Source: a virus
DNA length: 64,000 nucleotides
Strand: one strand, 5' to 3'
Virus record (IMG/VR): IMGVR_UViG_3300045988_099276
Location: 32,001 to 96,000 of that record
Shown here: piece by piece, positions 1,874 through 64,000 of the stretch
How positions within the stretch are numbered: the stretch's first letter is position 1
How the letters are laid out: every line of letters starts with the position of its first letter
Program-made: the position numbers and the translations under genes
The notes under the pieces: model-generated
Database searches by the model: none
Told to the model about the DNA's origin: nothing
The model's input: the letters and a program-made list of their open reading frames with translations, nothing else

Positions 1874-1950
1874 TGGTGGGCTATACAGAACTTGAATCTG
1901 TAACCTAAAGATTAGAAGTCTTTTGCTCTGTCCATTTGAGCTAATAGCCC
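1874..1950 (-). tRNA. tRNA-Arg (anticodon UCU), CCA encoded
   Basis: Minus strand reads GGGCTAT-TA-GCTC-AAATGGAC-AGAGC-A-AAAGA-CTTCTAA-TCTTT-AGGTT-ACAGA-TTCAAGT-TCTGT-ATAGCCC-A-CCA. This folds as a canonical cloverleaf with a 7-bp acceptor stem and a TTCAAGT T-loop. Confidence 0.9.
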
Positions 1951-30831: not shown

Positions 30832-32582
30832 TGAAAATAGATTATAAATTATATAAGCCAACATTGGATAATTTGACACCTCAACAACAAATTTTGTATA
30901 ATAGAGATATTCCAGTAGAAGAACAAAGTAATTGGCTTAATGCCTATTGGAATGACGTAAATGATTTTCATTTGTTAAAGAACATTAAAGACGCGGCTGT
31001 AATGATTATCAATCACTGTATGTGGACAAGCTCAAAGATTACTATTCTTCAGGACTCAGACCCGGATGGCCTTGGCTCTACTTCTATTATGGCTAACTAT
31101 ATTCATCGTATTTGTAGCAAGGAGCCGACTATTCTAATCCACGAAGGGAAAGCTCACGGACTTACAGACATTGATTTAGACAATATTATAGACACTACAA
31201 ATCTTCTTATTATCCCAGATGCGGCAAGTAATGATTATGAGCAGCTTAAATATTTACATGACAATGGCGTAGATATTGTAATCGCCGATCACCATCATGC
31301 TGAGAAATATTCTGAGGATGCTATTGTAGTAAATAACCAATTAGACGATTATCCAAATAAGAACTTCTGCGGTGCAGGTATTACATGGCAACTTTGCCGC
31401 CAGATGGATGAACTTCTTCATTTTGATTACGCAAATGATTTAATTGATTTATGTGCGCTGTCTTTATGCGCGGATATGATGGATTATCGTGAAAAAGAAG
31501 TGAGAGCGCTTGTCAACATAGGTTACGCGAACGTCAAGAATAAATTCTTTAAAGCGTTCGTAGACAAGCAAGAGTTTTCTTTAAATAAGATGAACGGTCT
31601 TAACTATCTTAGCTCTAGCTTTTACGTGGTTCCTTATCTGAATAGCTGCTGTCGAACTGGTGAAATGGTAGAGAAACGTCTTCTTATTAATGCTCTATTG
31701 GATTACAAATGTGATACAATGATTCCATCATCCAAGAGAGGTGAAAAGGGTAAAGAAGTTCCTATCTGGAAAGAAGCCATTACTGTTATTGAACGAGTAA
31801 AACGCAGACAGACTAAGCTACAAGATGAAGCTATGGAATTCTTTGAATATCAAATTCAATCCAAAAAGCTAACAGATAATGCTATCATTACTTGCGTATG
31901 CGGCAAAGATGATGCTGAACCAGGTATTCTCGGATTGGTGGCGAATCGTATCCAAGCTAAATATCAGCATCCCACACTAGTCTTGCAGGAAGTTGAAGAG
32001 GAAGACGTGGTGCATCTAAAAGGGTCTGCTCGTAATTACTCTTATTGTCCTATTGAAGATATGCGTAGTCTTTGTGAAGATACTGGTGTTGTCGATTATG
32101 CTTCTGGGCACGGGTCTGCATTTGGTCTGTCCTTGCCTTTAGAGAACTTTTATGAGTTCTTAGACAAGACCAATGAGCAATACAAAGGTGTCGATTTTAA
32201 ACCTGTCTATCTCGTTGATTACGTTTGGAATTACGATAGAGTCAATCCAAAATATGTTCTTGATATTGCAGAACTTAATATTTATGGTCAGGGTATTCCA
32301 GAGTCTAAAGTTGTGGTAGAAGATATTGCATTAGACAATGTTAATGTACAGCTTCTAGGTGAAGCAAAAGGGCATCCTACTATTAAGATTTCTTTACCGT
32401 CTGGCGTTGATATTATGAAATTCAAATCTTCTAGAGAAGAATTTGAAGAATGGACAAGTGGTGAAAAGAAGCTAACCATTGTAGGAACGTGTTCCAAAAA
32501 TTCTTGGATGGGAAACATTACGCCGCAAATTCTAATTGATGATTTTGAATTAGAAGATTATGAAGAGGAATGGGTATTTTAA
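30822..32582 (+). CDS. recJ: RecJ-like DHH-family ssDNA exonuclease
   Basis: DHH motifs DSDPDGLGS, IPDAASND, ADHHH and GAGITWQL. Exact start uncertain (30822 TTG or 30831 ATG). Confidence 0.75.
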   Translation: MELMKIDYKLYKPTLDNLTPQQQILYNRDIPVEEQSNWLNAYWNDVNDFHLLKNIKDAAVMIINHCMWTSSKITILQDSDPDGLGSTSIMANYIHRICSKEPTILIHEGKAHGLTDIDLDNIIDTTNLLIIPDAASNDYEQLKYLHDNGVDIVIADHHHAEKYSEDAIVVNNQLDDYPNKNFCGAGITWQLCRQMDELLHFDYANDLIDLCALSLCADMMDYREKEVRALVNIGYANVKNKFFKAFVDKQEFSLNKMNGLNYLSSSFYVVPYLNSCCRTGEMVEKRLLINALLDYKCDTMIPSSKRGEKGKEVPIWKEAITVIERVKRRQTKLQDEAMEFFEYQIQSKKLTDNAIITCVCGKDDAEPGILGLVANRIQAKYQHPTLVLQEVEEEDVVHLKGSARNYSYCPIEDMRSLCEDTGVVDYASGHGSAFGLSLPLENFYEFLDKTNEQYKGVDFKPVYLVDYVWNYDRVNPKYVLDIAELNIYGQGIPESKVVVEDIALDNVNVQLLGEAKGHPTIKISLPSGVDIMKFKSSREEFEEWTSGEKKLTIVGTCSKNSWMGNITPQILIDDFELEDYEEEWVF

Positions 32583-33377: not shown

Positions 33378-36300
33378 ATGCCAATGACAGTGCCGCGATT
33401 TGATATTCACAATCATACGCACTATTCTTAACCAACTTACGACTTATTGACTCAACTGTCAAACCAAAAGAACTAATTGATAGAGCTATAGAATTAGGTC
33501 TTGCGGGAATCGCAATCACCGACCATGAAGCGTTAGGCGGACACGTAGAGATTGACCGCATCCAAGAGGAATATAAAGATAAATATCCTGATTTTAAAAT
33601 CGTTCGCGGCAATGAGATTTATCTTACAGACACACGAGATTATGGTCAATATTACTATCACTTTGTTCTCTTGGCTTTAGATGCTATTGGGCATAAGATG
33701 CTACGTGAGCTATCTTCTACTGCTTGGATTAATAGCTATTTTGACCGAGGAATGGAACGTGTACCTACTCTAAAGTCAGACCTTGCGGCAATTGTTGAAA
33801 AGTATGGAAAAGGTCACCTGCATGGTAGCTGCGCCTGCTTAGCGGGAGAAGTCAATCATAACCTTAGTCTTATGATTAAAGCTGAAAAACAAGGAAATGC
33901 CGCACAAGTTAAAGTATATCATAAGAATATTGTTAACTTTATCAAGTGGTGTATATCAATCTTTGGCAAAGATTATTTTTCTTTAGAGGTTGCTCCCGGT
34001 CGCAATGAAGAACAATTCGCTGTCAACTCTAGAATGAATTCTTTATCTAAAGTATTCAATCTTCCAATTGTTATTGGATGTGATACACACTATCTTAAAA
34101 AGGAAGATAGATACGTACACAAGGCTTTCCTTAATTCTAAAGGTGGAGAGCGTGAAGTAGATTCGTTTTATGAGTATTGCTATTTACAATCTGAACAAGA
34201 GATTATAAAAAATCTTGAAGGCACAGGTCTTGATTATGAAGAACTATGCGCCAATTCAATGAATATTCTTGATAAGTGCCAGTATTATACTTTATATCAT
34301 AAACAGCAAGTGCCGCAAGTGGAAGTTCCTTCTTATCCAAAAGAGGAAAAGAATCATCACTTCTATGATGTAGATAAATATCCTACACTAGATTATCTTA
34401 TGCACTCAGATAATCCGCAAGAACGTTATTGGATAAACTATTGCCAAAACGAGCTGAATAAAAAGGGATTAAATAACGAAACCTATCTTGCAAGATTAGA
34501 GGAAGAAGCTGATATTAACAAGGTTATTGGCGATAAACTTGATACTTGTATGTTTGCTTATCCTATTTTTCTACAGCATTACATCAATCTTTTTTGGGAA
34601 TGCGGCTCAACGGTCGGTGCTGGTCGAGGGTCAGCTTGTTCTGGTCTTAACCACTGGCTTTTAGGTGTTACACAGCTAGACCCAGTTGTCAATGACTTGC
34701 CTTATTGGAGGTACTCGAATAAGGAACGTATCGAGCTAGGCGATATTGATATAGATTTAGCCCCGTCTAAACGCGAACTAGTCTTTGAGAAAATTAGGGA
34801 AGAACGTGGTCAATTAGGATGTGTGCAAGTCTGTACATATGGTACGGTTACATCTAAGGCAGCAGTAAAAATTGCTTGTCGAGGATATCGCTCAGATAAA
34901 TATCCAAATGGAATTGAGCTAGATGAAGCAGAATACCTTTCTTCTTTAATTCCTTCTGAACGTGGTTTTGTCTGGCCTTTATCTGATTGCTTTTTTGGCA
35001 ACGAAGAGAAGAAACGCAAGCCTAATAAAACTTTTGTCCAAGAGGTAAACAAATTCCCTCGTCTACAAGAAATCTTATTGAATATCTGCGGACTTGTTAC
35101 GCAACGAGCTATTCATGCTTCTGGTGTTAACTTTTATGGAGAAGACCCATACCAGACTGCTTGCTTTATGAAAGCTAAAAATGGAGCTATAATTACACAG
35201 TATTCTCTAGCGAATGCAGAGTACTGCGGTGATGTGAAGCTCGATTTCCTTGTGACGGAAGTGCAGGATGTAATTACTCAATGCCTTAATCTCTTACAGG
35301 AGAATGGTAAGATTGAATCTGGTCTAACACTTCGTCAAATGTATGATAAGTACCTACATCCTACAGTGTTACCGTTACATGATGAAAAACTGTGGAAAGC
35401 AGCTGTTTCTGGAAAGGTCTTAAAATTTTTCCAATTTGACACACAGGTCGGCGGTCAGACAATTAAGCTCTTAAAGCCGCACACACCTCTTGAAATGGCG
35501 AACTGCAATTCCATTATGCGTCTCATGGCTAGTGAACAAGGTGATGAAACACCAACAGAACGATACAAGCGCATGAAAGATGATATGTCGCAATGGTATG
35601 CGGAAATGGATAGATGGGGTCTTTCAAAGGAAGAACAAAAGAGTCTAGAGAAGTATTATCTGCCAACGTATGCGGCGCCTGCTCAGCAAGAAGATATGAT
35701 GATAATCCTAATGGAAGTCTGCGGCTTTTCTTTATCTGAGTCGAATTTTGCAAGAAAAGTTTGCGCAAAAAAGAAGATGGACAAGATTCCTGAGCTGAGA
35801 AAAATGGTATTACAAGGTGCTCCAAACGAAAATCTTGGTAAATACATTTGGGAGACTGCTATCAAACCACAGATGGGCTACTCATTTTCTCGAATCCATT
35901 CTCTGGCTTATTCCTATATCGGTCTACAAACGGTCTATTTAGCTACCTATTTTCCTGTCGTATATTGGAATACAGCTTGTCTTCGAGTCGATGCTGGTCT
36001 TGATGAAGATGCCGCATCTAACTATGGCAAGATTGCAAAGGCAATTGGTAATATGATTAACAATGGCGTTACAGTAAAGCCAGTTAATATCAATAAGTCT
36101 GGTTATCTATTTGAACCAGATGAGGAAGACAATGCTATCTTATATGGCATGAAATCGTTAAATGGAGTTGGCGGCGAAGTAGTTTCAAGAATTATTGCCA
36201 ATCGTCCATATGATTCATTCCAAGATTTCTTAGATAAAAACAATGAAAATAAGACTACAGTATTAGCTCTTATCAAAGGCGGCGCTTTTGATTCTTTCGA

Positions 36301-37231
36301 TAGCCGCAAGAATATTATGAAACAATATATTGAGATTGTAAGTAATCCCAAAAAGCGTATCACAATGCAAAACTTTAAATCTTTAATTGATTATAAGCTC
36401 ATTCCAAAAGAACTAAAGTTCCAAAAGCAAGTGTTTAATTTCGACAAAACAATGAAAAAACAATGCAAATATACAGCAGAAGAATTTGATTTAAGCAAAT
36501 CAGATATACATTATAAGTTTTATAATAAATACTTTGATACTGATAATCTATATATTAAAAATAATTCTATATGTCTAAATAAAACGACTTGGAAGAAAGA
36601 ATATGATAAAGTAATGCTTGCCGCAAAAGATTACATCCAAGAGAACAAAGAAGTTTTATTACAGAAGCTAAATAGGAAACTGTTCTTAGAGCAATGGAAT
36701 ACATATGCGACAGGTACATATTCAACTTGGGAAATGGATGCTCTTGGATATTATTATCATAAACATGAATTGTCAAATGTTGACGAATCTATTTATGATA
36801 TAGTATCATATAATAGTTTACCGACAACGCCACCTACCGATTATGTATTTAAACGTGGCGATAAAGAGATTAAAATTCCTAAGACTTGCAGAATTATTGG
36901 TACAGTGGTCGGCAAGAATAATACAAAAGGACAAGTTGATATTCTTACAACTGATTCTGGCGTTGTAACTGTTAAGTTTGCATTAGATTATTTTGCAAAA
37001 TATAATCGCCGTGTAAGTGAAAATGTAAATGGTGAAAATAAGGTTATGGAACAAGGATGGTTTCAAAAAGGAACACTGATTGTAGTTAATGGCTATCGAA
37101 ACGGTGATATGTTTAGAGCAAAGAAATATAAGAAAACCAACTCGCATCAATTATATAAAATTACGAAAGTAAATAAAGACGGCACTATAGAAATGACCAA
37201 TAACCGCTATGGCGAAAATGTTGACAATTAA
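33378..37231 (+). CDS. dnaE: DNA polymerase III alpha subunit-like replicase (PHP + pol core), reading frame broken near codon 17
   Basis: AAGGA SD then ATG 33378 gives MPMTVPRFDIHNHTHYS, followed by TAA at 33429. The rest of the PHP domain (NLRLIDSTVKPKELIDRAIELGLAGIAITDHEALGG...) and the 1186-aa core continue in the -1 frame, which is open from 33404. Confidence 0.85.
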
Positions 37232-46983: not shown

Positions 46984-47030
46984 AAAAAAAAAGAGGGGTA
47001 TTCTCAATTAAGAGAATACCCCTTATTTTA
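46984..47030. terminator. bidirectional terminator between convergent blocks
   Basis: GGGGTATTCTC/GAGAATACCCC 11-bp stem flanked by an A run (5') and a T-rich run (3'). Confidence 0.8.
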
Positions 47031-52321: not shown

Positions 52322-53053
52322 TTAAATTTTTATCCACAACTTACATCTTGAATCTGTTGGCTGAGTAGATGAAACTTGAACTGAATATTCAGTGTTTGCA
52401 CTTCCAGCAGTAGTGGCATATTTAACTGATTGAGAACCAATATCAGCTGATGTAATACATTGGCCGTAATATGAATCGTCTGAGTTATATAGAGAAACAT
52501 TCGGAGTACCATTTAAACCTTTGACGCAAAAGGCACCACTCTTATTATGGTCACCAATAGCAGCATCATCGCCAACGACATACCAAGTATTGTTTGCGAA
52601 ATACGGTTCTAGCTTAGAAGGAAAATCACTGATTTGAGACTTTGTATGTGTATGACTAGAAGGCGTATATGTATTTGGCTTTCCAGATATATTATTCCAA
52701 GCGACAGCATTCGCAGTGGCGGCTGTAGTCGCTGTTGTGGCACTTCCTGCTGAATCAGCATATCCCGCAGACATTTTATACCAAGCACTAGAATTTAGCG
52801 CTCTTTTGTATAAATAAGATGATGCTCCGTCTGGAATAGCAATTTGAAATGGAGTGCCAATATCTGCATCGGTGAACACACTTGCCCATGTGCCAACGGG
52901 AGAAGATGCGTTGCCACCAGTTGACGGCACTCCCCTGACAACATAATAACCAGTTTTGGTATGATTATCTAGATTCGTATCAGTTGTTACTGTTTCTGTC
53001 AACAGCGGTATTTTAGAAAATTTACTACCATCAGAAAGATAAAGTTCAGCCAT
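52322..53053 (-). CDS. tail fibre / receptor-binding protein (fibre C)
   Basis: N-terminal MAELYLSDGSKFSKIP; ISGKPNTYTPSSHTHTKSQISDFP module; conserved C-terminus SSTQPTDSRCKLWIKI. No SD; ATG overlapped by the leader stop. Confidence 0.72.
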   Translation of the reverse strand: MAELYLSDGSKFSKIPLLTETVTTDTNLDNHTKTGYYVVRGVPSTGGNASSPVGTWASVFTDADIGTPFQIAIPDGASSYLYKRALNSSAWYKMSAGYADSAGSATTATTAATANAVAWNNISGKPNTYTPSSHTHTKSQISDFPSKLEPYFANNTWYVVGDDAAIGDHNKSGAFCVKGLNGTPNVSLYNSDDSYYGQCITSADIGSQSVKYATTAGSANTEYSVQVSSTQPTDSRCKLWIKI

Positions 53054-53117
53054 TTAAATCAATTAAACTAGTTAATGTGGGCTTAAAGCCCCCCCCCCAA
53101 GAAGTGTAAGTTTGCAT
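53046..53117 (-). CDS. poly-G leader ORF C (23 aa, ON frame)
   Basis: GAAAGGA SD then ATG; MQTYTSWGGGFKPTLTSLIDLNG. The TGA overlaps the fibre ATG (AATGGCTGA). Confidence 0.5.
   Translation of the reverse strand: MQTYTSWGGGFKPTLTSLIDLNG
53089..53098 (-). repeat. homopolymeric tract, G10 on the coding strand
   Basis: C10 run on the + strand inside leader ORF C. Confidence 0.95.
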
Positions 53118-53134
53118 AAAAATTCCTTTCAATC

Positions 53135-54181
53135 TTAAATTTTAATCCATATCTTACATGTATTGCTAGTAGGCTTTGTGCTAGATATGGTTACAATGTC
53201 GCTCGCTGCCTTGGCATTGAGCTTTGTGTTCATTTCACTTTCAGTATAGTAGCGGTCATCGTGAGTGTGGCTAGAGTTGGCTTTGCCGTTTAATTTAGTA
53301 TTGATTTCGCTTTCAGTGTAATATCTATCATCGTGAGTGTGACTTGACGGAGCATACGTAGAAGGTTTGCCATTAACATTCCCCCATGACACACTATTGG
53401 CAGAACCAGCACTGCTGGCATATGCAACTTTACCAACATCATAACCAGTAGCTTGTGCAGTATATGCTCTTGTGTCCATTGCAGCTCGGGGTTCATCGTT
53501 CATTAACTGCCAAGAAGAGCCATTACCACCACGGGTGCTGTTTGCTAAAATTCGGATATTACACGAATTATATGTGCCAGTAGCATGAAAATATAAATCA
53601 GCATATCCAACAGTTGATTTAGCAGAATGTATTTTTAAAATAAATTGGTCTGGTTCATATCCATATCTACAAAGCCATTGAACGTTTCCATGAGTAGCCA
53701 CAGCGCTTTCAGATACATTATCATTGCGGAAACGGACTGCTAGAATGCCAAATCCACCACTTTCGTAACCAGAATCTACACACAATACAACGCTACCATC
53801 GAAAGAATTAGTTTTTGATTCAAGCTTTAAACAACGCCAATATGGTTTAGCAGCACTGCTTTGAGTAACATATCGGACAGTACCATTTAAATAATTAGCG
53901 ATATTAGCTGTACCAGAAATATTACATGATACAACATTTCCTACTGGATTATATTTAAAATTATCGCTATGAACTCTTTGATTATCTGCACTATTATTTG
54001 AAAACCAAACATGTCTTGCAGCATTGTCCGAAGCGGTACCATAACTTTTTACTTCTTTCGCGGCACCTCCTGCGGAATCTGCACCCGCATAATTATGGCT
54101 ATGACTAGCAGCTGCTGCTCCCACCATATCTGGCGTCCACTCTTTAAAAGACCCGCCACTGGGATAATACGCTTTAGCCAA
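53135..54181 (-). CDS. tail fibre / receptor-binding protein (fibre B)
   Basis: TTG start without SD; MAKAYYPSGGSFKEW; SSHTHDDRYYTESE(I/M)NTKL occurs twice; C-terminus SSTKPTSNTCKIWIKI. Confidence 0.72.
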   Translation of the reverse strand: MAKAYYPSGGSFKEWTPDMVGAAAASHSHNYAGADSAGGAAKEVKSYGTASDNAARHVWFSNNSADNQRVHSDNFKYNPVGNVVSCNISGTANIANYLNGTVRYVTQSSAAKPYWRCLKLESKTNSFDGSVVLCVDSGYESGGFGILAVRFRNDNVSESAVATHGNVQWLCRYGYEPDQFILKIHSAKSTVGYADLYFHATGTYNSCNIRILANSTRGGNGSSWQLMNDEPRAAMDTRAYTAQATGYDVGKVAYASSAGSANSVSWGNVNGKPSTYAPSSHTHDDRYYTESEINTKLNGKANSSHTHDDRYYTESEMNTKLNAKAASDIVTISSTKPTSNTCKIWIKI

Positions 54182-54193
54182 TTAAATCATTGG

Positions 54194-54253
54194 CTACTGA
54201 TGCCCCCCCCAGCAGACCTCACTAAAGGTGCGCTGTGTTAAAATATTCTTCAT
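54194..54253 (-). CDS. poly-G leader ORF B (19 aa as sequenced, OFF frame)
   Basis: MKNILTQRTFSEVCWGGHQ* with G8. With G9 it reads ...WGGASVANDLIG* and its TAA overlaps the fibre TTG (TTGGCTAA). Confidence 0.45.
   Translation of the reverse strand: MKNILTQRTFSEVCWGGHQ
54203..54210 (-). repeat. homopolymeric tract, G8 on the coding strand
   Basis: C8 run on the + strand inside leader ORF B. Confidence 0.95.
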
Positions 54254-54260
54254 ATTATCA

Positions 54261-55721
54261 CTATACCTTAATCCATAATTTACAAGTACTCGCGTTGGGC
54301 TGCGAAGAAGAAACGATAACTTCTTCTGGCCGCCAAGTGTTAGTGTCATTATCAGTAAGCGCAATAGTCGCATTGCCAGACTGGTTCAAAGTAAACGTAC
54401 CCTTTGTAGCGCCGTTCTGCGTAATTGTAATAGTACCATTGCCGACAGAAGGAATTGACGGTCTGTTAGAGATTTCAGACCAAGAATAGGAAGGTTTGCT
54501 TGAAGCCTTAGCCCAAGCATACACATCACTTGCTGGCATACTGGTAGGGAAATCTGTAATCTGGGACTTTGAATGAGTGTGTGAAGAAGCGGCGGCACCG
54601 ATACTAGAAGCTGTGATATTAATATTCTTGACTGCACTACCATCATATGCACCTTGAGAAGTACCATTTAAAGAAATGGTAAGCGCATTAGGATTCTTTA
54701 AAGAACTTGGAACAGTAGGAATAGTAGGCTTATTGGAAAGGTCATTATATGAGCCGCTTGTCGCAACGGTAGCAAAAGATGGCTTGCCAGATACCTGTGA
54801 CCAAGTAGGAGTATGATTGGAATCAAAATAATGCGCCCAAGCGCTCCAAGCGTTAACATTAAACTGGCGAATCCAAGTTTTCATAGCATTGGTATTGCCC
54901 TCAGTTAAAACTTGAACTAGATAACTGCCAGCTGTTCTTTTGACTTCAAGACCGAAAGCGTCTACGCCAGTGGGCTTATTCTTGACACTATTTGAACCAC
55001 CCGCAAAATAAAGGCCAACTGTTTTAGTATCATCAAGATTTTGTGTAGTAAGTTCTGTTACCTTTAGTGCGTTTGCGGTTGCAGCAGTAGTCGCACTGCC
55101 AGCACTAGCCGCATACTTTACACTCTTGGCAGAGTCAGCGGTATTATCAACATTACCTAGACCGACTTCTGCCTTAGAATATGAAGGTTTTGTGGCTGCT
55201 TTCGCCCATGCAGAAACATCTGATGCTGGCATTGAAGTCGGAAAATCTGTAATATCGGCTTTAACATGTTTGTGACCAGTATCAGACTTACCGTCAAGAG
55301 CAGATTTAACAACCTTACTCTGAACTGGATTGGTAGAATTAGTAACGAACGATGTATCTACAACTGTCTTGTTCGCGCCAGTAGCAACACCGTCAAGTTT
55401 AGCCTTATCTGCGGCAGACATAAGACCTGCGGCACTGGTAGTAGCATTGCCGTATACAGTATTTGAATCGGTAACATTAAATGTACTACCATCGCTACCC
55501 TTGAGGGTAATTGTATTGCCATTTTTGGTTAGATTATAAGTTGTATTTGTATTGATATTATCTTTAATCTGAATCAGAGAGGATGAAGAAATACCCATCC
55601 ACAAAGTGCCGGTATCGGTGGCAACATACAATGCACCGTCCAATACTTTATTTTCGGCAGTGAGTGCTTTGATATTAGGTTCTTTATCTCTGATAAATTT
55701 TACTCTTGCTATCTTGCTCAC
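54261..55721 (-). CDS. tail fibre protein (486 aa)
   Basis: GAAAGGA SD then GTG. Repeated KADITDFPTSMPASDVSAWAKA / KSQITDFPTSMPASDVYAWAKA modules with HTH/HKH motifs. C-terminus SSSQPNASTCKLWIKV. Confidence 0.78.
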   Translation of the reverse strand: MSKIARVKFIRDKEPNIKALTAENKVLDGALYVATDTGTLWMGISSSSLIQIKDNINTNTTYNLTKNGNTITLKGSDGSTFNVTDSNTVYGNATTSAAGLMSAADKAKLDGVATGANKTVVDTSFVTNSTNPVQSKVVKSALDGKSDTGHKHVKADITDFPTSMPASDVSAWAKAATKPSYSKAEVGLGNVDNTADSAKSVKYAASAGSATTAATANALKVTELTTQNLDDTKTVGLYFAGGSNSVKNKPTGVDAFGLEVKRTAGSYLVQVLTEGNTNAMKTWIRQFNVNAWSAWAHYFDSNHTPTWSQVSGKPSFATVATSGSYNDLSNKPTIPTVPSSLKNPNALTISLNGTSQGAYDGSAVKNINITASSIGAAASSHTHSKSQITDFPTSMPASDVYAWAKASSKPSYSWSEISNRPSIPSVGNGTITITQNGATKGTFTLNQSGNATIALTDNDTNTWRPEEVIVSSSQPNASTCKLWIKV

Positions 55722-60910: not shown

Positions 60911-60943
60911 TAAAAAAACGAGGGAAACATAAAGTTTCCCTCG
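60911..60943 (-). terminator. Rho-independent terminator
   Basis: CGAGGGAAAC/GTTTCCCTCG stem followed by T7 on the minus strand. Confidence 0.75.
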
Positions 60944-61008: not shown

Positions 61009-61395
61009 CTAGGCTGTGCGGAAATAGATATTAAAAGCCCTGTACTTTGGGCGGTTGTCAAAAGGTTGATTACCGCCTGTATTTTCCATCGAATCGTTTG
61101 GTGGATTCCAGCTTCTAGAACCGTTAAGAGCAGCTTTAAAATAGTTTTGTGAATTGCCAGTAAGCCATTCACCGAATCCAGCAAGCACGTGGTTATGTGA
61201 TGGCATTTGGTTAATTGTAAGTTTAATAGAGTTTGTGCCACCTGTTGTATTTGGCGTGCCGCAACAAATGAACGTGTCATTATCGAGCTTTGTCCATGTT
61301 CCGCCAATGGAATCTGCTGGCGAGACTGAATTGTTTGAAATAAAGACTGACCCAACTGGGTAGACAATATCCATGAGGTTAACGTAGTTAGACAT
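61009..61395 (-). CDS. phage tail-collar-domain protein, paralog 4
   Basis: MSNYVNLMDIVYPVGSVFIS...SPADSIGGTWTKL...MPSHNH...GGNQPFDNRPKY...YFRTA. Confidence 0.72.
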   Translation of the reverse strand: MSNYVNLMDIVYPVGSVFISNNSVSPADSIGGTWTKLDNDTFICCGTPNTTGGTNSIKLTINQMPSHNHVLAGFGEWLTGNSQNYFKAALNGSRSWNPPNDSMENTGGNQPFDNRPKYRAFNIYFRTA

Positions 61396-61413
61396 ACGCC
61401 ACCTCGCTCAGAT

Positions 61414-61806
61414 TTAAGCTGTACGATACCAGATAAAGCAAGTTGTATAGGGCGGCAGATTGTTGTGTGCTTGCCCCCCCCCAGTATTCTTTGCAGCATT
61501 ATTCCAATCTGGATTACCATCATTCCACGCAGGAGAATTAGTTGCAAAAAGTGTACGATATGTTGTTGCATTTCCACCGTTAACAACAGCAACAACAATG
61601 CCATGTCCATGAGACGGCATTTCATCAATTGTTAACGTATGCTTTGCTTCTCCGCCTGTTTGATTTGCGGTATTAGCTCCATAGAGGAAAGTCTTAATTT
61701 TCGTCCATGTACCACCAATAGAATCAGCAGGTGATGTTGCACTCATGCTCTGATAGATTGAGCCTACTGGATATACGATATCCAATAGATTTACAAAATT
61801 ACTCAT
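61414..61806 (-). CDS. phage tail-collar-domain protein, paralog 3 (contains an in-frame G9 tract)
   Basis: MSNFVNLLDIVYPVGSIYQS...GGTWTKI...MPSHGH...NTGGGQAHNNLPPY...WYRTA. The GGG GGG GGG codons encode the conserved GGGQ motif. Confidence 0.72.
   Translation of the reverse strand: MSNFVNLLDIVYPVGSIYQSMSATSPADSIGGTWTKIKTFLYGANTANQTGGEAKHTLTIDEMPSHGHGIVVAVVNGGNATTYRTLFATNSPAWNDGNPDWNNAAKNTGGGQAHNNLPPYTTCFIWYRTA
61474..61482 (-). repeat. homopolymeric tract, G9 on the coding strand, intragenic
   Basis: C9 run on the + strand, 23 codons before the stop of 61414-61806. Confidence 0.95.
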
Positions 61807-61850
61807 TTATATCCTTTCTAATTTAATAGAAAGAATATTATAAAATCTTC

Positions 61851-62303
61851 TTAGGCTGTTCTCTTATATACATTTAAAGAATAATGATAAGGAATATGCT
61901 TCTGCTGCTCGACTAATTGCCCATTTGAGTCTATTCGCCAAATGTCTTTAGTCCACAAATTCCAACCAGTATCACCACCATCTTTACCACCAACTGACAA
62001 TAATTGCCATAGATTACCAGCGGCAGCATTAGTATTCCAAAAACCAATACCCGAATATTGTTCCCTGTCATGATGCCAACCCACAACATTGTGCTGATGG
62101 TCTGGTATGGCTAGCTGAGAAATTATATTGCTACCAGAAAAACGTCCAGCTACGTTATAGGTATCACCACTTGCCGCAAGCAAACAATTTTCAATTTGTG
62201 TCCACGTACCACCAATAGAATCAGCAGGAGAAGTAGCATTTGTACTAATATAGATACTTCCTACTGGATAAATAATATCAAGAAGATTTACAAAATTAGA
62301 CAT
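61851..62303 (-). CDS. phage tail-collar-domain protein, paralog 2 (divergent C-terminal half)
   Basis: MSNFVNLLDIIYPVGSIYIS...SPADSIGGTWTQI...IPDHQH...YKRTA. Confidence 0.68.
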   Translation of the reverse strand: MSNFVNLLDIIYPVGSIYISTNATSPADSIGGTWTQIENCLLAASGDTYNVAGRFSGSNIISQLAIPDHQHNVVGWHHDREQYSGIGFWNTNAAAGNLWQLLSVGGKDGGDTGWNLWTKDIWRIDSNGQLVEQQKHIPYHYSLNVYKRTA

Positions 62304-62342
62304 GATAAATCACCATGCCTAGAACAGCCATTGAAGAAGAAG

Positions 62343-62399
62343 CTACATTACTGTAGCCTCCCCCCCCCAATGACTGTGATTAGTCATTAAGTTTTTCAT
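62343..62399 (-). CDS. poly-G leader ORF D (18 aa as sequenced, OFF frame)
   Basis: GAAAGGA SD then ATG; MKNLMTNHSHWGGEATVM* with G9. With G10 it reads ...HWGGGGYSNVASSSMAVLGMVIYHV* and its TAA overlaps the next ATG (ATGTCTAA). Confidence 0.45.
   Translation of the reverse strand: MKNLMTNHSHWGGEATVM
62360..62368 (-). repeat. homopolymeric tract, G9 on the coding strand
   Basis: C9 run on the + strand inside leader ORF D. Confidence 0.95.
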
Positions 62400-62434
62400 A
62401 ATATCCTTTCGTTTAGATATTATGATTTTAGACT

Positions 62435-62818
62435 TTAAGCAGTTCGCACCCAAACTTTGCAAGCATATGAATAAGGATAATAATCCTGTCCACCACCAGC
62501 ATCACCAGTATTACACCCTTGAGGATAGTTTTGTGCGCCAGCACTGCCTGAATCTTCACTATAGTCTTTACGAACAATATTAGGATTACCGTAATTTGCT
62601 GTAACATATTGAGCGTGTGCGTGAACTGGCATCTGTTTAACGCTAATAGTCTTACTACCAGTATAACCTACAATATCATCATATGCGGCCAAACATGCGC
62701 CATCTTTAATTTGAGTCCATGTACCGCCAATAGATGATGCAGGTGAAATACCGCTAGCAGTGATATATATACTGTTTACAGGATAGATAATATCTAGAAG
62801 GTTTACGAAATTGCTCAT
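62435..62818 (-). CDS. phage tail-collar-domain protein, paralog 1
   Basis: MSNFVNLLDIIYPVNSIYIT...GGTWTQI...MPVHAH...GGGQDYYPYSY...VWVRTA. Strong AAGGAGG SD. Confidence 0.72.
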   Translation of the reverse strand: MSNFVNLLDIIYPVNSIYITASGISPASSIGGTWTQIKDGACLAAYDDIVGYTGSKTISVKQMPVHAHAQYVTANYGNPNIVRKDYSEDSGSAGAQNYPQGCNTGDAGGGQDYYPYSYACKVWVRTA

Positions 62819-62931
62819 TATTCAACCTCCTTATTTGGGAGGTTATCTAAAATCATAATATCAAATTGATTTATAGATTCTAAGCTACCGCAGTAGCCCC
62901 CTAGAGAGGTCAATTCATTAAACTTATTCAC
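62818..62931 (-). CDS. leader-like small ORF E (37 aa) with a short G5 run
   Basis: AAAGGAG SD then GTG; VNKFNELTSLGGYCGSLESINQFDIMILDNLPNKEVE. Its TAA overlaps the next ATG (TAATG). LGGY aligns with WGGGGY of leader D. Confidence 0.45.
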   Translation of the reverse strand: MNKFNELTSLGGYCGSLESINQFDIMILDNLPNKEVE

Positions 62932-62975: not shown

Positions 62976-63010
62976 GAAAAAAGGGCAAAACCCCTAATAG
63001 GATTTTGCCC
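62976..63010 (-). terminator. Rho-independent terminator
   Basis: GGGCAAAA/TTTTGCCC stem followed by T6 on the minus strand, after fibre A. Confidence 0.6.
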
Positions 63011-63019
63011 AAAACTATA

Positions 63020-63838
63020 TTAGATTTTAATCCACAATTTACAAGTAGAGGATGTAGGCTGAGAAGATGATACAGTGATAACATCATTTGCCGCATAATT
63101 GGAAGAAGAAGTATATGCGGCGCTACCAAGACCTAACCATTTCCTATATTCACCTTGTGATACGTCTTTAATTTTTCGTTCATCGTTCATACCAAGAGCA
63201 TACTTAAAATCGGCAGATGTAAATCCATCACCAGCATAACCGATTTTAATACCTTGATTAGTATTATTATAATCCGCTATCTCAATAGCTTTATCTGCTG
63301 AACCTGCACTTGTAGCTTTACCAGTAAGATTGCCTTTAAAATTATTAGCTTCAATCGTTGAATACGCAGTATTCGATGTATAATTACAAAACTTATATGT
63401 AATACCAGTAGTCCCACCATCTGATGCATCAGAGTCGGCATTTCTATAATTAAAATAACAAGTAGGTTGCTTACCACCAGAAAAGTTAATTTCATTTTGA
63501 TGAGTATAAATTACATTTATACACTTATTAGCGGTACCAGCTGAATTAGCATAATTTACTGACTTACTAGAATCTGCTGTATTATTGACGTTATTGATAC
63601 CTAGATATTGCTTTGCCGCATCTAGATTTACATCTTTAATATGATTGCCAGTTGAACTATATCCTGCAAGACAACCTAAATTCTTTTCAGCATCTTCTTG
63701 ATTTAATCTTAAAGATTCTGCTGCAAATCCTATTTTAATTGTTCTACCGGTAGGTGCATTATAATCTCGCACACCATCGGCTTTAGAAGGGACAAATTCA
63801 GAAAAATTCGTCCCATCGCTCACCATAAAATCAGCCAC
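63020..63838 (-). CDS. tail fibre / receptor-binding protein (fibre A)
   Basis: GTG start without SD; MADFMVSDGTNFSEFVP; C-terminus SSSQPTSSTCKLWIKI. Confidence 0.72.
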   Translation of the reverse strand: MADFMVSDGTNFSEFVPSKADGVRDYNAPTGRTIKIGFAAESLRLNQEDAEKNLGCLAGYSSTGNHIKDVNLDAAKQYLGINNVNNTADSSKSVNYANSAGTANKCINVIYTHQNEINFSGGKQPTCYFNYRNADSDASDGGTTGITYKFCNYTSNTAYSTIEANNFKGNLTGKATSAGSADKAIEIADYNNTNQGIKIGYAGDGFTSADFKYALGMNDERKIKDVSQGEYRKWLGLGSAAYTSSSNYAANDVITVSSSQPTSSTCKLWIKI

Positions 63839-63852
63839 ATCTATCAGCTAAG

Positions 63853-63897
63853 TTATCTAGCGGGGCAGATGCCCCCCCCCAGAAACGTATTATTCAT
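63853..63897 (-). CDS. poly-G leader ORF A (14 aa as sequenced, OFF frame)
   Basis: AAGGA SD then ATG; MNNTFLGGGICPAR* with G9. With G8 it reads MNNTFLGGASAPLDNLADRCG* and its TGA overlaps the fibre GTG (GTGGCTGA). Confidence 0.45.
   Translation of the reverse strand: MNNTFLGGGICPAR
63872..63880 (-). repeat. homopolymeric tract, G9 on the coding strand
   Basis: C9 run on the + strand inside leader ORF A. Confidence 0.95.
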
Positions 63898-63907
63898 ATC
63901 TACATCC

Positions 63908-64000
63908 TTAAATTTGTACCCACAGTTTAACATGTTCTTCTGTTGGCTTACTCACGCCAACATAAACAGTACCAACATCATCTGCAAGTTTACCATTGGT
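63908..64000 (-). CDS. tail fibre protein (3' end only; gene starts beyond the window)
   Basis: ...TNGKLADDVGTVYVGVSKPTEEHVKLWVQI*; the C-terminus is homologous to the ..QPT...CKLWIKI ends of the other fibres. Confidence 0.6.
   Translation of the reverse strand, partial: TNGKLADDVGTVYVGVSKPTEEHVKLWVQI

Follow-up and report, generated by a model that had tools for sequence, protein, structure and literature searches.

We analysed a 64,000-nucleotide (nt) stretch of viral DNA, positions 32,001 to 96,000 of IMG/VR record IMGVR_UViG_3300045988_099276 (hereafter the window). It lies within L032, a contig of 146,342 bp from human-gut metagenome data (ERR321583, PRJEB4336), and belongs to an uncultured tailed phage. 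The element under study is a run of nine G's (G9) in a short open reading frame (ORF), leader A, which lies directly upstream of a gene for a fibre-like protein of 272 amino acids (aa), fibre A. Our best reading of leader A is a polyG contingency control of phage receptor-binding proteins, new in being read through the coupling of a leader ORF. Judging from the sequence comparisons below, the tract probably sets the register of the leader and thereby gates termination-reinitiation at the fibre A start. In the mechanism we propose, the G9 run would be a contingency (phase-variation) tract, at which slipped-strand mispairing during phage DNA replication would add or remove G's at a high rate. 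Each change in length would shift the register in which a short leader, itself equipped with a ribosome-binding site, is read, and fibre A, with a GTG start and no such site, would rely on the ribosomes that the leader delivers. With eight or eleven G's (G8/G11), the leader would be read across the fibre start and end at an overlapping TGA (GTGGCTGA), allowing re-initiation and turning the fibre ON. In the other two registers, that of the window's G9 included, stops 14–18 nt upstream would free the ribosome early and leave the fibre OFF or low. The same design would govern two further fibres and two tip proteins, with a third tip protein carrying a tract in its own coding sequence, and a phage population would come to hold a mixture of receptor-binding sets.

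Features below lie on the minus strand unless stated otherwise, and coordinates are those of the window. The tract is a minus-strand run of exactly nine G (63880–63872) that sits 33 nt 5' of fibre A. The region reads AAA CTG TGG GTA CAA ATT TAA GGA TGT AGA T ATG AAT AAT ACG TTT CTG GGG GGG GGC ATC TGC CCC GCT AGA TAA CTT AGC TGA TAG ATG TGG CTG ATT TTA TGG TG. In the state found in the window, leader A is a 14-codon ORF (63853–63897) encoding MNNTFLGGGICPAR, from ATG 63897 to a TAA at 63855–63853, 14 nt 5' of the GTG. It has its own start and Shine-Dalgarno (SD) signal: an SD-like AAGGA (63905–63909) lies 7 nt 5' of the ATG and overlaps the stop of the upstream fibre gene, and both the TAAGG and the ATG are invariant in 16 relatives.

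A preliminary description of this DNA, made from the letters and a list of ORFs, had given this ORF and its stop for G9, and we reproduced both the coordinates and the translation. It had further held that the tract is one G too long for the coupled frame, which we also found, as either G8 or G11 restores the overlap. With one G fewer, the leader encodes MNNTFLGGASAPLDNLADRCG and ends at TGA 63833–63831, overlapping the GTG at 63838–63836 as GTGGCTGA (63831–63838); with G11 it ends at the same TGA. Every relative has this junction; in one lineage its start codon is ATG. With one G more (G10) the peptide becomes ...LGGGHLPR and stops 4 nt earlier than with G9, again as first described. A stop/start overlap suited to coupling is present in G8/G11 only, while the stops of the two non-coupled registers fall 14–18 nt 5' of the fibre start, and all three registers end within 25 nt of it. 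A GGAS...(N/D)L motif is common to leader A and a second leader, F3 (ATG 54253; leader B of the preliminary description). The motif had been reported for leader A in the G8 frame only, and this holds; F3 likewise shows it only in its own coupled register, G9 (WGGASVANDLIG).

The tract at leader A lies in a separate ORF and not in the receptor-binding gene itself, and a leader-fibre fusion was found in none of the relatives. We ruled out that leader and fibre A are a single gene with a 5' tract, since the fibre frame has a TAA or TAG between leader and start in every relative. We also ruled out TAG recoding as a means of fusing leader and fibre in the G10 register, as TAG ends ordinary genes and most relatives have TAA as their first stop.

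Fibre A (63020–63838) has 272 aa when counted from the GTG and contains an in-frame alternative ATG at 63826. No SD-like motif was found in the 20 nt before GTG 63838 or before ATG 63826, bearing out the earlier remark that the GTG start lacks an SD. We take the GTG to be the start because the N-terminus that it gives (MADFMVSDGTNF) is homologous to those of two paralogous fibres that are also preceded by leaders, one of 348 aa (MAKAYYPSGGSF) and one of 243 aa (MAELYLSDGSKF). In a crude SD scan of the 47–64 kb block, these three leader-preceded fibres were the only credible genes without a motif. The scan also flagged a 486-aa fibre (GTG 55721), yet AAAGGA stands directly before its start; three more ORFs that it flagged look spurious.

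The protein itself gave no sequence match in Pfam, PHROG or PDB, and an AlphaFold2 model from 22 sequences was unusable (predicted local distance difference test score 33.7). We call fibre A fibre-like from its sequence and position: its C-terminus (SSSQPTSSTCKLWIKI) is common to four other fibre ORFs, it shares the segment NNTADS.KSV.YA.SAG with the 486-aa fibre, and it is placed between a Phage_fiber_2 gene and Gp10_C-like genes of the same module. The five fibre-like ORFs (519, 272, 486, 348 and 243 aa, the second being fibre A) end in SS(S/T)(Q/K)P...CK(L/I)WIK(I/V) or the related VKLWVQI. Through the C-terminal motif and the NNTADS segment, fibre A is linked to ORFs that match tail-fibre PHROGs and the PTR repeat.

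The same arrangement recurs in the module. The minus strand of the window from 52.3 to 64 kb forms a receptor-binding module of fibre-like ORFs, tip proteins and several further structural ORFs. The GGGGGGGG pattern has 10 matches at five loci in the 64-kb window (37% G+C), versus 0.08 expected from 100 dinucleotide-preserving shuffles. All five G8–G10 tracts of the window have their G's on the coding strand and lie within this module, and GGG is the rarest glycine codon (4.6%). A long G tract (at least 7) is found beside a receptor-binding or tail-fibre gene at leader A, and each of the three fibres (fibre A, 348 aa and 243 aa) directly follows a short, SD-bearing ORF with a G tract. The leaders' own SD is AAGGA or AAAGGAG, 5–8 nt before the start. 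In each of five leaders exactly one register stops on the downstream start, as GTGGCTGA at leader A, TAATG at T1, ATGTCTAA at T2, TTGGCTAA at F3 and ATGGCTGA at F4, and the remaining two registers stop 8–69 nt upstream of it. The joint chance of a start-landing register at all five, taken as a product, is about 0.008.

The other four leaders and the genes behind them are as follows. Leader T1 (62818–62931; GTG start 62931, SD AAAGGAG) encodes VNKFNELTSLGGYCGSLESINQFDIMILDNLPNKEVE; its tract has shrunk to G5 (62897–62901) and is coupled, the TAA overlapping ATG 62818 of a Gp10_C-like (tail-collar-type) tip protein of 127 aa (62435–62818). Leader T2 (62343–62399; ATG 62399) encodes MKNLMTNHSHWGGEATVM with G9 at 62360–62368, a non-coupled state. 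With G10 it would reach TAA 62298–62296, overlapping ATG 62303 (ATGTCTAA) of the second Gp10_C-like tip protein (150 aa, 61851–62303). The third Gp10_C-like tip protein (130 aa, 61414–61806) has the tract inside the gene, where G9 at 61474–61482 encodes the GGG of GGGQAHNNLPPY and a change in length would truncate the protein. Leader F3 (54194–54253) encodes MKNILTQRTFSEVCWGGHQ with a non-coupled G8 (54203–54210). With G9 it would read WGGASVANDLIG to TAA 54177–54175, overlapping TTG 54181 (TTGGCTAA) of the 348-aa fibre (53135–54181), which has a TTG start and no SD. Leader F4 (53046–53117) encodes MQTYTSWGGGFKPTLTSLIDLNG with a coupled G10 (53089–53098), and its TGA 53048–53046 overlaps ATG 53053 (ATGGCTGA) of the 243-aa fibre (52322–53053), which has an ATG start and no SD. 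In the window as assembled, leaders A (G9), T2 (G9) and F3 (G8) are out of register, leaders T1 (G5) and F4 (G10) are in register, and the in-gene G9 at 61474–61482 is in frame.

Tract length varies among relatives. Fibre A has 144 homologs, all metagenomic and on contigs up to 146 kb, two of them labelled 'MAG TPA: hypothetical protein [Caudoviricetes sp.]'. We retrieved 37 related loci and scored leader A in 31 human-gut contigs, the window included. Relatives do not consistently carry G9, the pattern that the preliminary description had named as counting against it: the tract is G6 in 2 contigs, G7 in 3, G8 in 2, G9 in 12 (the window and a second assembly of its strain included), G10 in 8, G11 in 2, G20 in 1 and an interrupted G5AG3 in 1. 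Near-identical genomes differ by single G's. The flanks of contigs L028 and L031 are 100% and 99.6% identical, and their leader A tracts are G10 (non-coupled) and G11 (coupled). Six contigs of one strain, from six samples, have 15 single-nucleotide polymorphism columns in 6 kb, with internal indels only in five G tracts, all of which are polymorphic. In a second clade (L034–L037), one tract reads 10/9/10/9. These differences in length between near-identical genomes are seen at the level of assemblies, and two assemblies of the window's own strain are concordant at 9/9/9. Slippage would be their cause.

Across the 37 loci, coding-strand G runs of at least 7 are confined to the receptor-binding module, and no coding-strand C runs of at least 7 were found. 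At leader A, the tract is an uninterrupted run of at least 6 G in 30 of the 31 contigs despite a mean column identity of 85% in the surrounding alignment, which argues, at the level of sequence conservation, that the G run itself is under selection. Every relative keeps the open overlap frame, the invariant TGA on the start and stops in the other two registers. The preliminary description had proposed aligning leaders A and B in relatives to see whether the ON frame is the conserved one. At leader A, relatives preserve an open overlap frame and its terminal TGA, the peptide is poorly conserved, and the coupled register occurs in a small minority of contigs.

Several observations weigh against the reading that the window's G9 is an OFF state of a leader-coupled switch. 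Only 4 of the 31 contigs are in the coupled register at leader A (L001 with G20, L021 with G5AG3, L025 with G8 and L031 with G11), and the window's register is the commonest. The latter, recognized by a peptide ending in GICPA(R/K/T), was counted in about 14 independent lineages versus about 7 for the third register, and different leader prefixes reach it with tracts of G7, G8, G9 and G10, so it may be favoured or functional. The leader A peptide shows many non-synonymous changes and no visible purifying selection. The tract lengths come from short-read consensus assemblies, which are prone to miscounting long homopolymers. Predicted RNA structure around the fibre A GTG is weak (z = -1.2 to -2.5). 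When the 33-nt gap of leader A is taken by itself and shuffled, 62% of the shuffles also have one register that reaches the start; because of this single-site chance of 0.62, compared with the joint 0.008, the stop/start overlap at leader A is persuasive only within the five-site pattern. Lastly, a 14-nt gap in Escherichia coli lowers re-initiation by gene-specific amounts, and not always to nil (PMC10666635).

The strongest alternative is that the tract is hypermutable but G9 is not OFF. Post-termination ribosomes would still reach the GTG 14 nt on, so that the three registers would give graded output, or G9 itself would be the functional state. We regard this as unlikely, although it draws on the prevalence of the window's register and its recurrence through four tract lengths on different prefixes, on the closeness of all three stops to the start (at most 25 nt), and on the variable, gene-specific losses at +14 nt spacing in E. 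coli (PMC10666635). However, the 14 versus 7 excess over the third register is not significant, the lineages are not independent of one another, and an SD-less GTG 14 nt downstream should be captured inefficiently. The other sites also speak for the overlap register as the ON state. At T1 and T2 the non-coupled registers stop 42–69 nt upstream, which leaves the overlap register as the only one able to couple, and termination-reinitiation drops steeply as the stop-to-start distance grows, in both E. coli and Haloferax (PMC10666635). Leaders A, T1 and T2 together have 11 decayed tracts (interrupted or no longer than G6), and 7 of these are in the coupled register versus one third expected (binomial p ~0.04, our own estimate). 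For these three reasons we favour the overlap register as ON. The in-gene tracts of relatives are often out of frame as well, and a mostly-OFF repertoire therefore seems normal for this phage.

A second alternative places the switch in the RNA or on the ribosome. Polymerase stutter, or a +1 or -1 shift on GGG GGG GGG helped by a downstream hairpin, would yield a fixed coupled minority from any genotype, and may coexist with slippage in the DNA. G GGG GGG fits the X XXY YYZ slippery pattern, every tract has its G's on the sense strand, and short palindromes (GCUAC..GUAGC, GCUAA..UUAGC) follow the tracts, the one at leader A with a compensatory change in one lineage. Yet the hairpins have only 5–6 bp and almost no spacer, which makes them weak frameshift stimulators, stops in all three registers preclude an extended product, and length differences are seen directly in the DNA of near-identical genomes. 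At leader A, no register could give the extended product of a programmed frameshift site, and the downstream hairpin has 5 bp with almost no spacer. We consider a switch at this level improbable as the sole explanation.

Less probable still is that tract and leader were left over, as neutral sequence, from a cassette duplication and that fibre A is translated independently, e.g., in an SD-independent manner from ATG 63826. Gene callers do place the start at this ATG, the leader peptide is poorly conserved, and leader A on its own is not statistically distinctive. A relic G9 in a 37% GC genome should soon be interrupted, however, and the tract is intact in 30 of the 31 contigs, spread over lineages whose fibre A proteins are 72–96% identical. 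The stops of the other registers and the TGA on the start are also kept in all relatives, and only the three leader-preceded fibres lack a credible SD. Finally, it is highly improbable that the length differences are homopolymer sequencing or assembly noise around a fixed true length: all data are short-read metagenome assemblies, the G20 of L001 is suspicious and both assemblies of the window strain agree at 9/9/9, but the six one-strain assemblies have indels only at the five tracts, called ORFs change along with them (a 277-aa fusion in L016), lengths span 6 to 11 across lineages, and interrupted variants exist.

We also considered strong RNA structure hiding the fibre A start, which has weak support at leader A, unlike at T1, T2 and F3. 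At T1, the hairpin AACCUCC/GGAGGUU covers the SD of the next gene. At T2, a very stable predicted fold (z = -7.3) pairs the tract region and buries ATG 62303. At F3, an 8-bp stem, UAGCCAAU/AUUGGCUA, contains the TTG start. Where the start has no SD, dependence on the leader needs no sequestration. The hairpin at 62297–62321 (minus strand), over the ATG of the tip gene 61851–62303, also scored as terminator-like, and by this modelling the T2 hairpin could be a translation-dependent attenuator as well as a start-codon mask. Leader A has a small hairpin, GCUAA/UUAGC, in which L005, L018 and L019 show one compensatory change (C-G to U-A). Four of the five leader tracts in the window are followed within 0–10 nt by a short palindrome: GCTAgataacTTAGC at 63860–63846, GCTACtgcgGTAGC at 62897–62880 and GCTACAgtaaTGTAGC at 62360–62335 (all minus strand), and TAGCCAAT..ATTGGCTA in leader F3. 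The 3' arms of these palindromes provide TAG stops of out-of-register frames.

The nearest precedent is found in Campylobacter Fletchervirus phages, whose receptor-binding protein genes are described as containing hypermutable tracts of 7–11 G (Sorensen et al. 2021, Cell Rep 35:109214, as reported in PMC12633550 and PMC10579305). As in Fletchervirus, the long G runs here are several per genome and lie in the host-recognition module. In the accounts cited, a change of length in Fletchervirus switches which receptor-binding proteins are made and so gives mixed progeny. Those accounts describe the tracts as within the receptor-binding genes, whereas here a separate leader ORF of 14–37 codons precedes three fibres and two tip proteins, the three fibres have no SD of their own, and the phage, 146 kb long, comes from the human gut, is uncultured and has a lysin of Gram-positive type. 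In T2, T4 and other coliphages, short homopolymers that slip reversibly form contingency loci and serve as switches for bet-hedging (Gomez, Barrick and Waters 2025 preprint, PMC12633550). Most of these loci are A/T runs of at least 6 in ORFs of all functional classes, and they are under-represented in tail fibres (PMC12633550), unlike the long G runs here, which are confined to the fibre and tip module.

Slippage-variable repeats also tune expression in bacterial homopolymer phase variation (Neisseria, Haemophilus, Campylobacter and Helicobacter). In Helicobacter pylori, tlpB has a variable G-repeat in the 5' leader of its mRNA that is targeted by the small RNA RepG (PMC8295292). That repeat is likewise outside the coding sequence, but its length acts by base-pairing with the small RNA and not through the reading frame of an upstream ORF. 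Other tropism switches, the invertible tail-fibre segments of Mu (Gin) and P1 (Cin) and the diversity-generating retroelement of Bordetella phage BPP-1 (as cited in PMC10579305), resemble the present system in that one phage genome holds alternative receptor-binding proteins. Gin and Cin use site-specific inversion and BPP-1 mutagenic retrohoming; in this module no invertase or reverse transcriptase was seen.

For the coupling itself, a close parallel is the lysis gene of MS2, which Kastelein and colleagues are said to have found, in 1982, to be expressed by termination-reinitiation after frameshifted coat translation. As we propose for fibre A, a start unable to recruit ribosomes is served only by adjacent termination, and the upstream register decides. 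In MS2 the change of register is a rare ribosomal error on a fixed sequence, whereas here it would be set heritably by the length of a DNA tract. Translational coupling in general is treated in PMC10666635 and PMC6728339.

In our literature search, no account turned up of a leader ORF that carries such a tract and is coupled by stop/start overlap. At an even balance of probabilities, this would be the first phase variation in a phage or bacterium that works through an upstream leader ORF, with a hypermutable G run setting the register and a single register bringing ribosomes, through stop/start overlap, to a gene that lacks an SD. The design would recur at least five times within one module, as a reversible, combinatorial switchboard of fibres and tips in an abundant uncultured gut phage lineage. 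So far, Campylobacter phages are the only ones in which polyG switching of receptor-binding proteins has been demonstrated by experiment. If the reading is right, it would extend to widespread uncultured human-gut phages of 140–146 kb with a Gram-positive-type lysin, and tract length would be read via the register of a coupled leader and not via gene truncation. Gene callers mis-annotate such loci by missing leaders, choosing wrong starts, and fusing or truncating tip genes, so host-range predictions from single consensus assemblies are unreliable. The locus is also a compact, testable case for phage populations that would hedge against variable gut host surfaces.

Upstream of leader A, the 3' end of another fibre gene occupies 63908–64000; it is 519 aa long in L032, matches Pfam Phage_fiber_2 and ends ...VKLWVQI, with TAA at 63910–63908. 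The fibre gene that precedes leader F3 (54261–55721, 486 aa from GTG 55721) ends CKLWIKV. Within codons 9–17 of fibre A (63790–63815, minus strand) is a conserved 10-bp hairpin, GGGACGAAUU/AAUUUGUCCC, whose pairing is preserved by synonymous changes in relatives (GC to GU, GU to GC). The leader-plus-fibre cassettes of the 348- and 243-aa fibres are optional (window 52322–55721 compared with L018, L019 and L021): in some relatives they are missing, and in others fibre A is followed by different cassettes. Recombination may join cassettes at the leaders and at the conserved ...CKLWIKI 3' ends. A 1088-aa ORF of L021 was considered as a fusion of the 486-, 348- and 243-aa fibres and ruled out, since it is a longer ortholog of the 486-aa fibre.

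A terminator-like hairpin with a 12-bp stem and a T run (62983–63010) stands directly 3' of the fibre A stop, and a promoter-like TTGCCC-16-TAGAAT (62988–62961), 5' of leader T1, overlaps it. Because this hairpin (63010–62983) follows fibre A and the promoter-like site precedes leader T1, the transcription unit would close after fibre A. Leader A and fibre A probably end a unit that starts with or before the 519-aa fibre gene. A second strong terminator-like hairpin with a T run lies at 60919–60943 (minus strand), and the pair brackets the tip-protein operon.

The tip proteins (61009–62818, minus strand) are four tandem paralogs of 127–150 aa, all starting MSNF/YVNL.DI.YPVGS, and relatives have 1–6 copies. 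Two of the window's copies stand behind polyG leaders and one has the in-gene tract; the fourth Gp10_C-like copy (128 aa, 61009–61395) has no tract and its own SD. In L016, a G11 tract joins two tip neighbours into a 277-aa ORF. The T1 tract is G9–G10 in most relatives, always out of register where intact. The window has a decayed G5 form, and interrupted forms occur elsewhere (among L004, L011, L019, L021, L024 and L028), e.g., GGGGGGAGGGG, GGTGGGGG and GGAGTGGGG; five of the eight decayed T1 forms are in the coupled register.

The phage encodes an SPbeta-YorL-like DNA polymerase, a topoisomerase II, NrdD and a lysin of the Amidase_2 family. The lysin is similar to those of Eggerthella, Lactococcus and Enterococcus phages (Gram-positive type), and the tip proteins share about 45% identity with proteins of Streptococcus prophages. 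These two resemblances are the only hints to the host, both indirect, and low-GC gut Firmicutes are candidates. Comparison of the module with 50,697 phage records by megablast and blastn found no DNA similarity, and scans of 185,579 genomes for a host, with the exact pattern and with the DNA polymerase, gave no match. The polymerase is a DnaE-like protein of 1186 aa (33671–37231, plus strand) whose best matches are YorL of Bacillus SPbeta and phi3T, at 38% identity over the full length; no cultured relative nearer than these was found. A single tRNA-Arg(TCT) gene lies at 1874–1950 (minus strand). The sole other long homopolymer of the window is an A9 run at 46984–46992, located between the plus-strand replication block and the minus-strand lysis and structural block.

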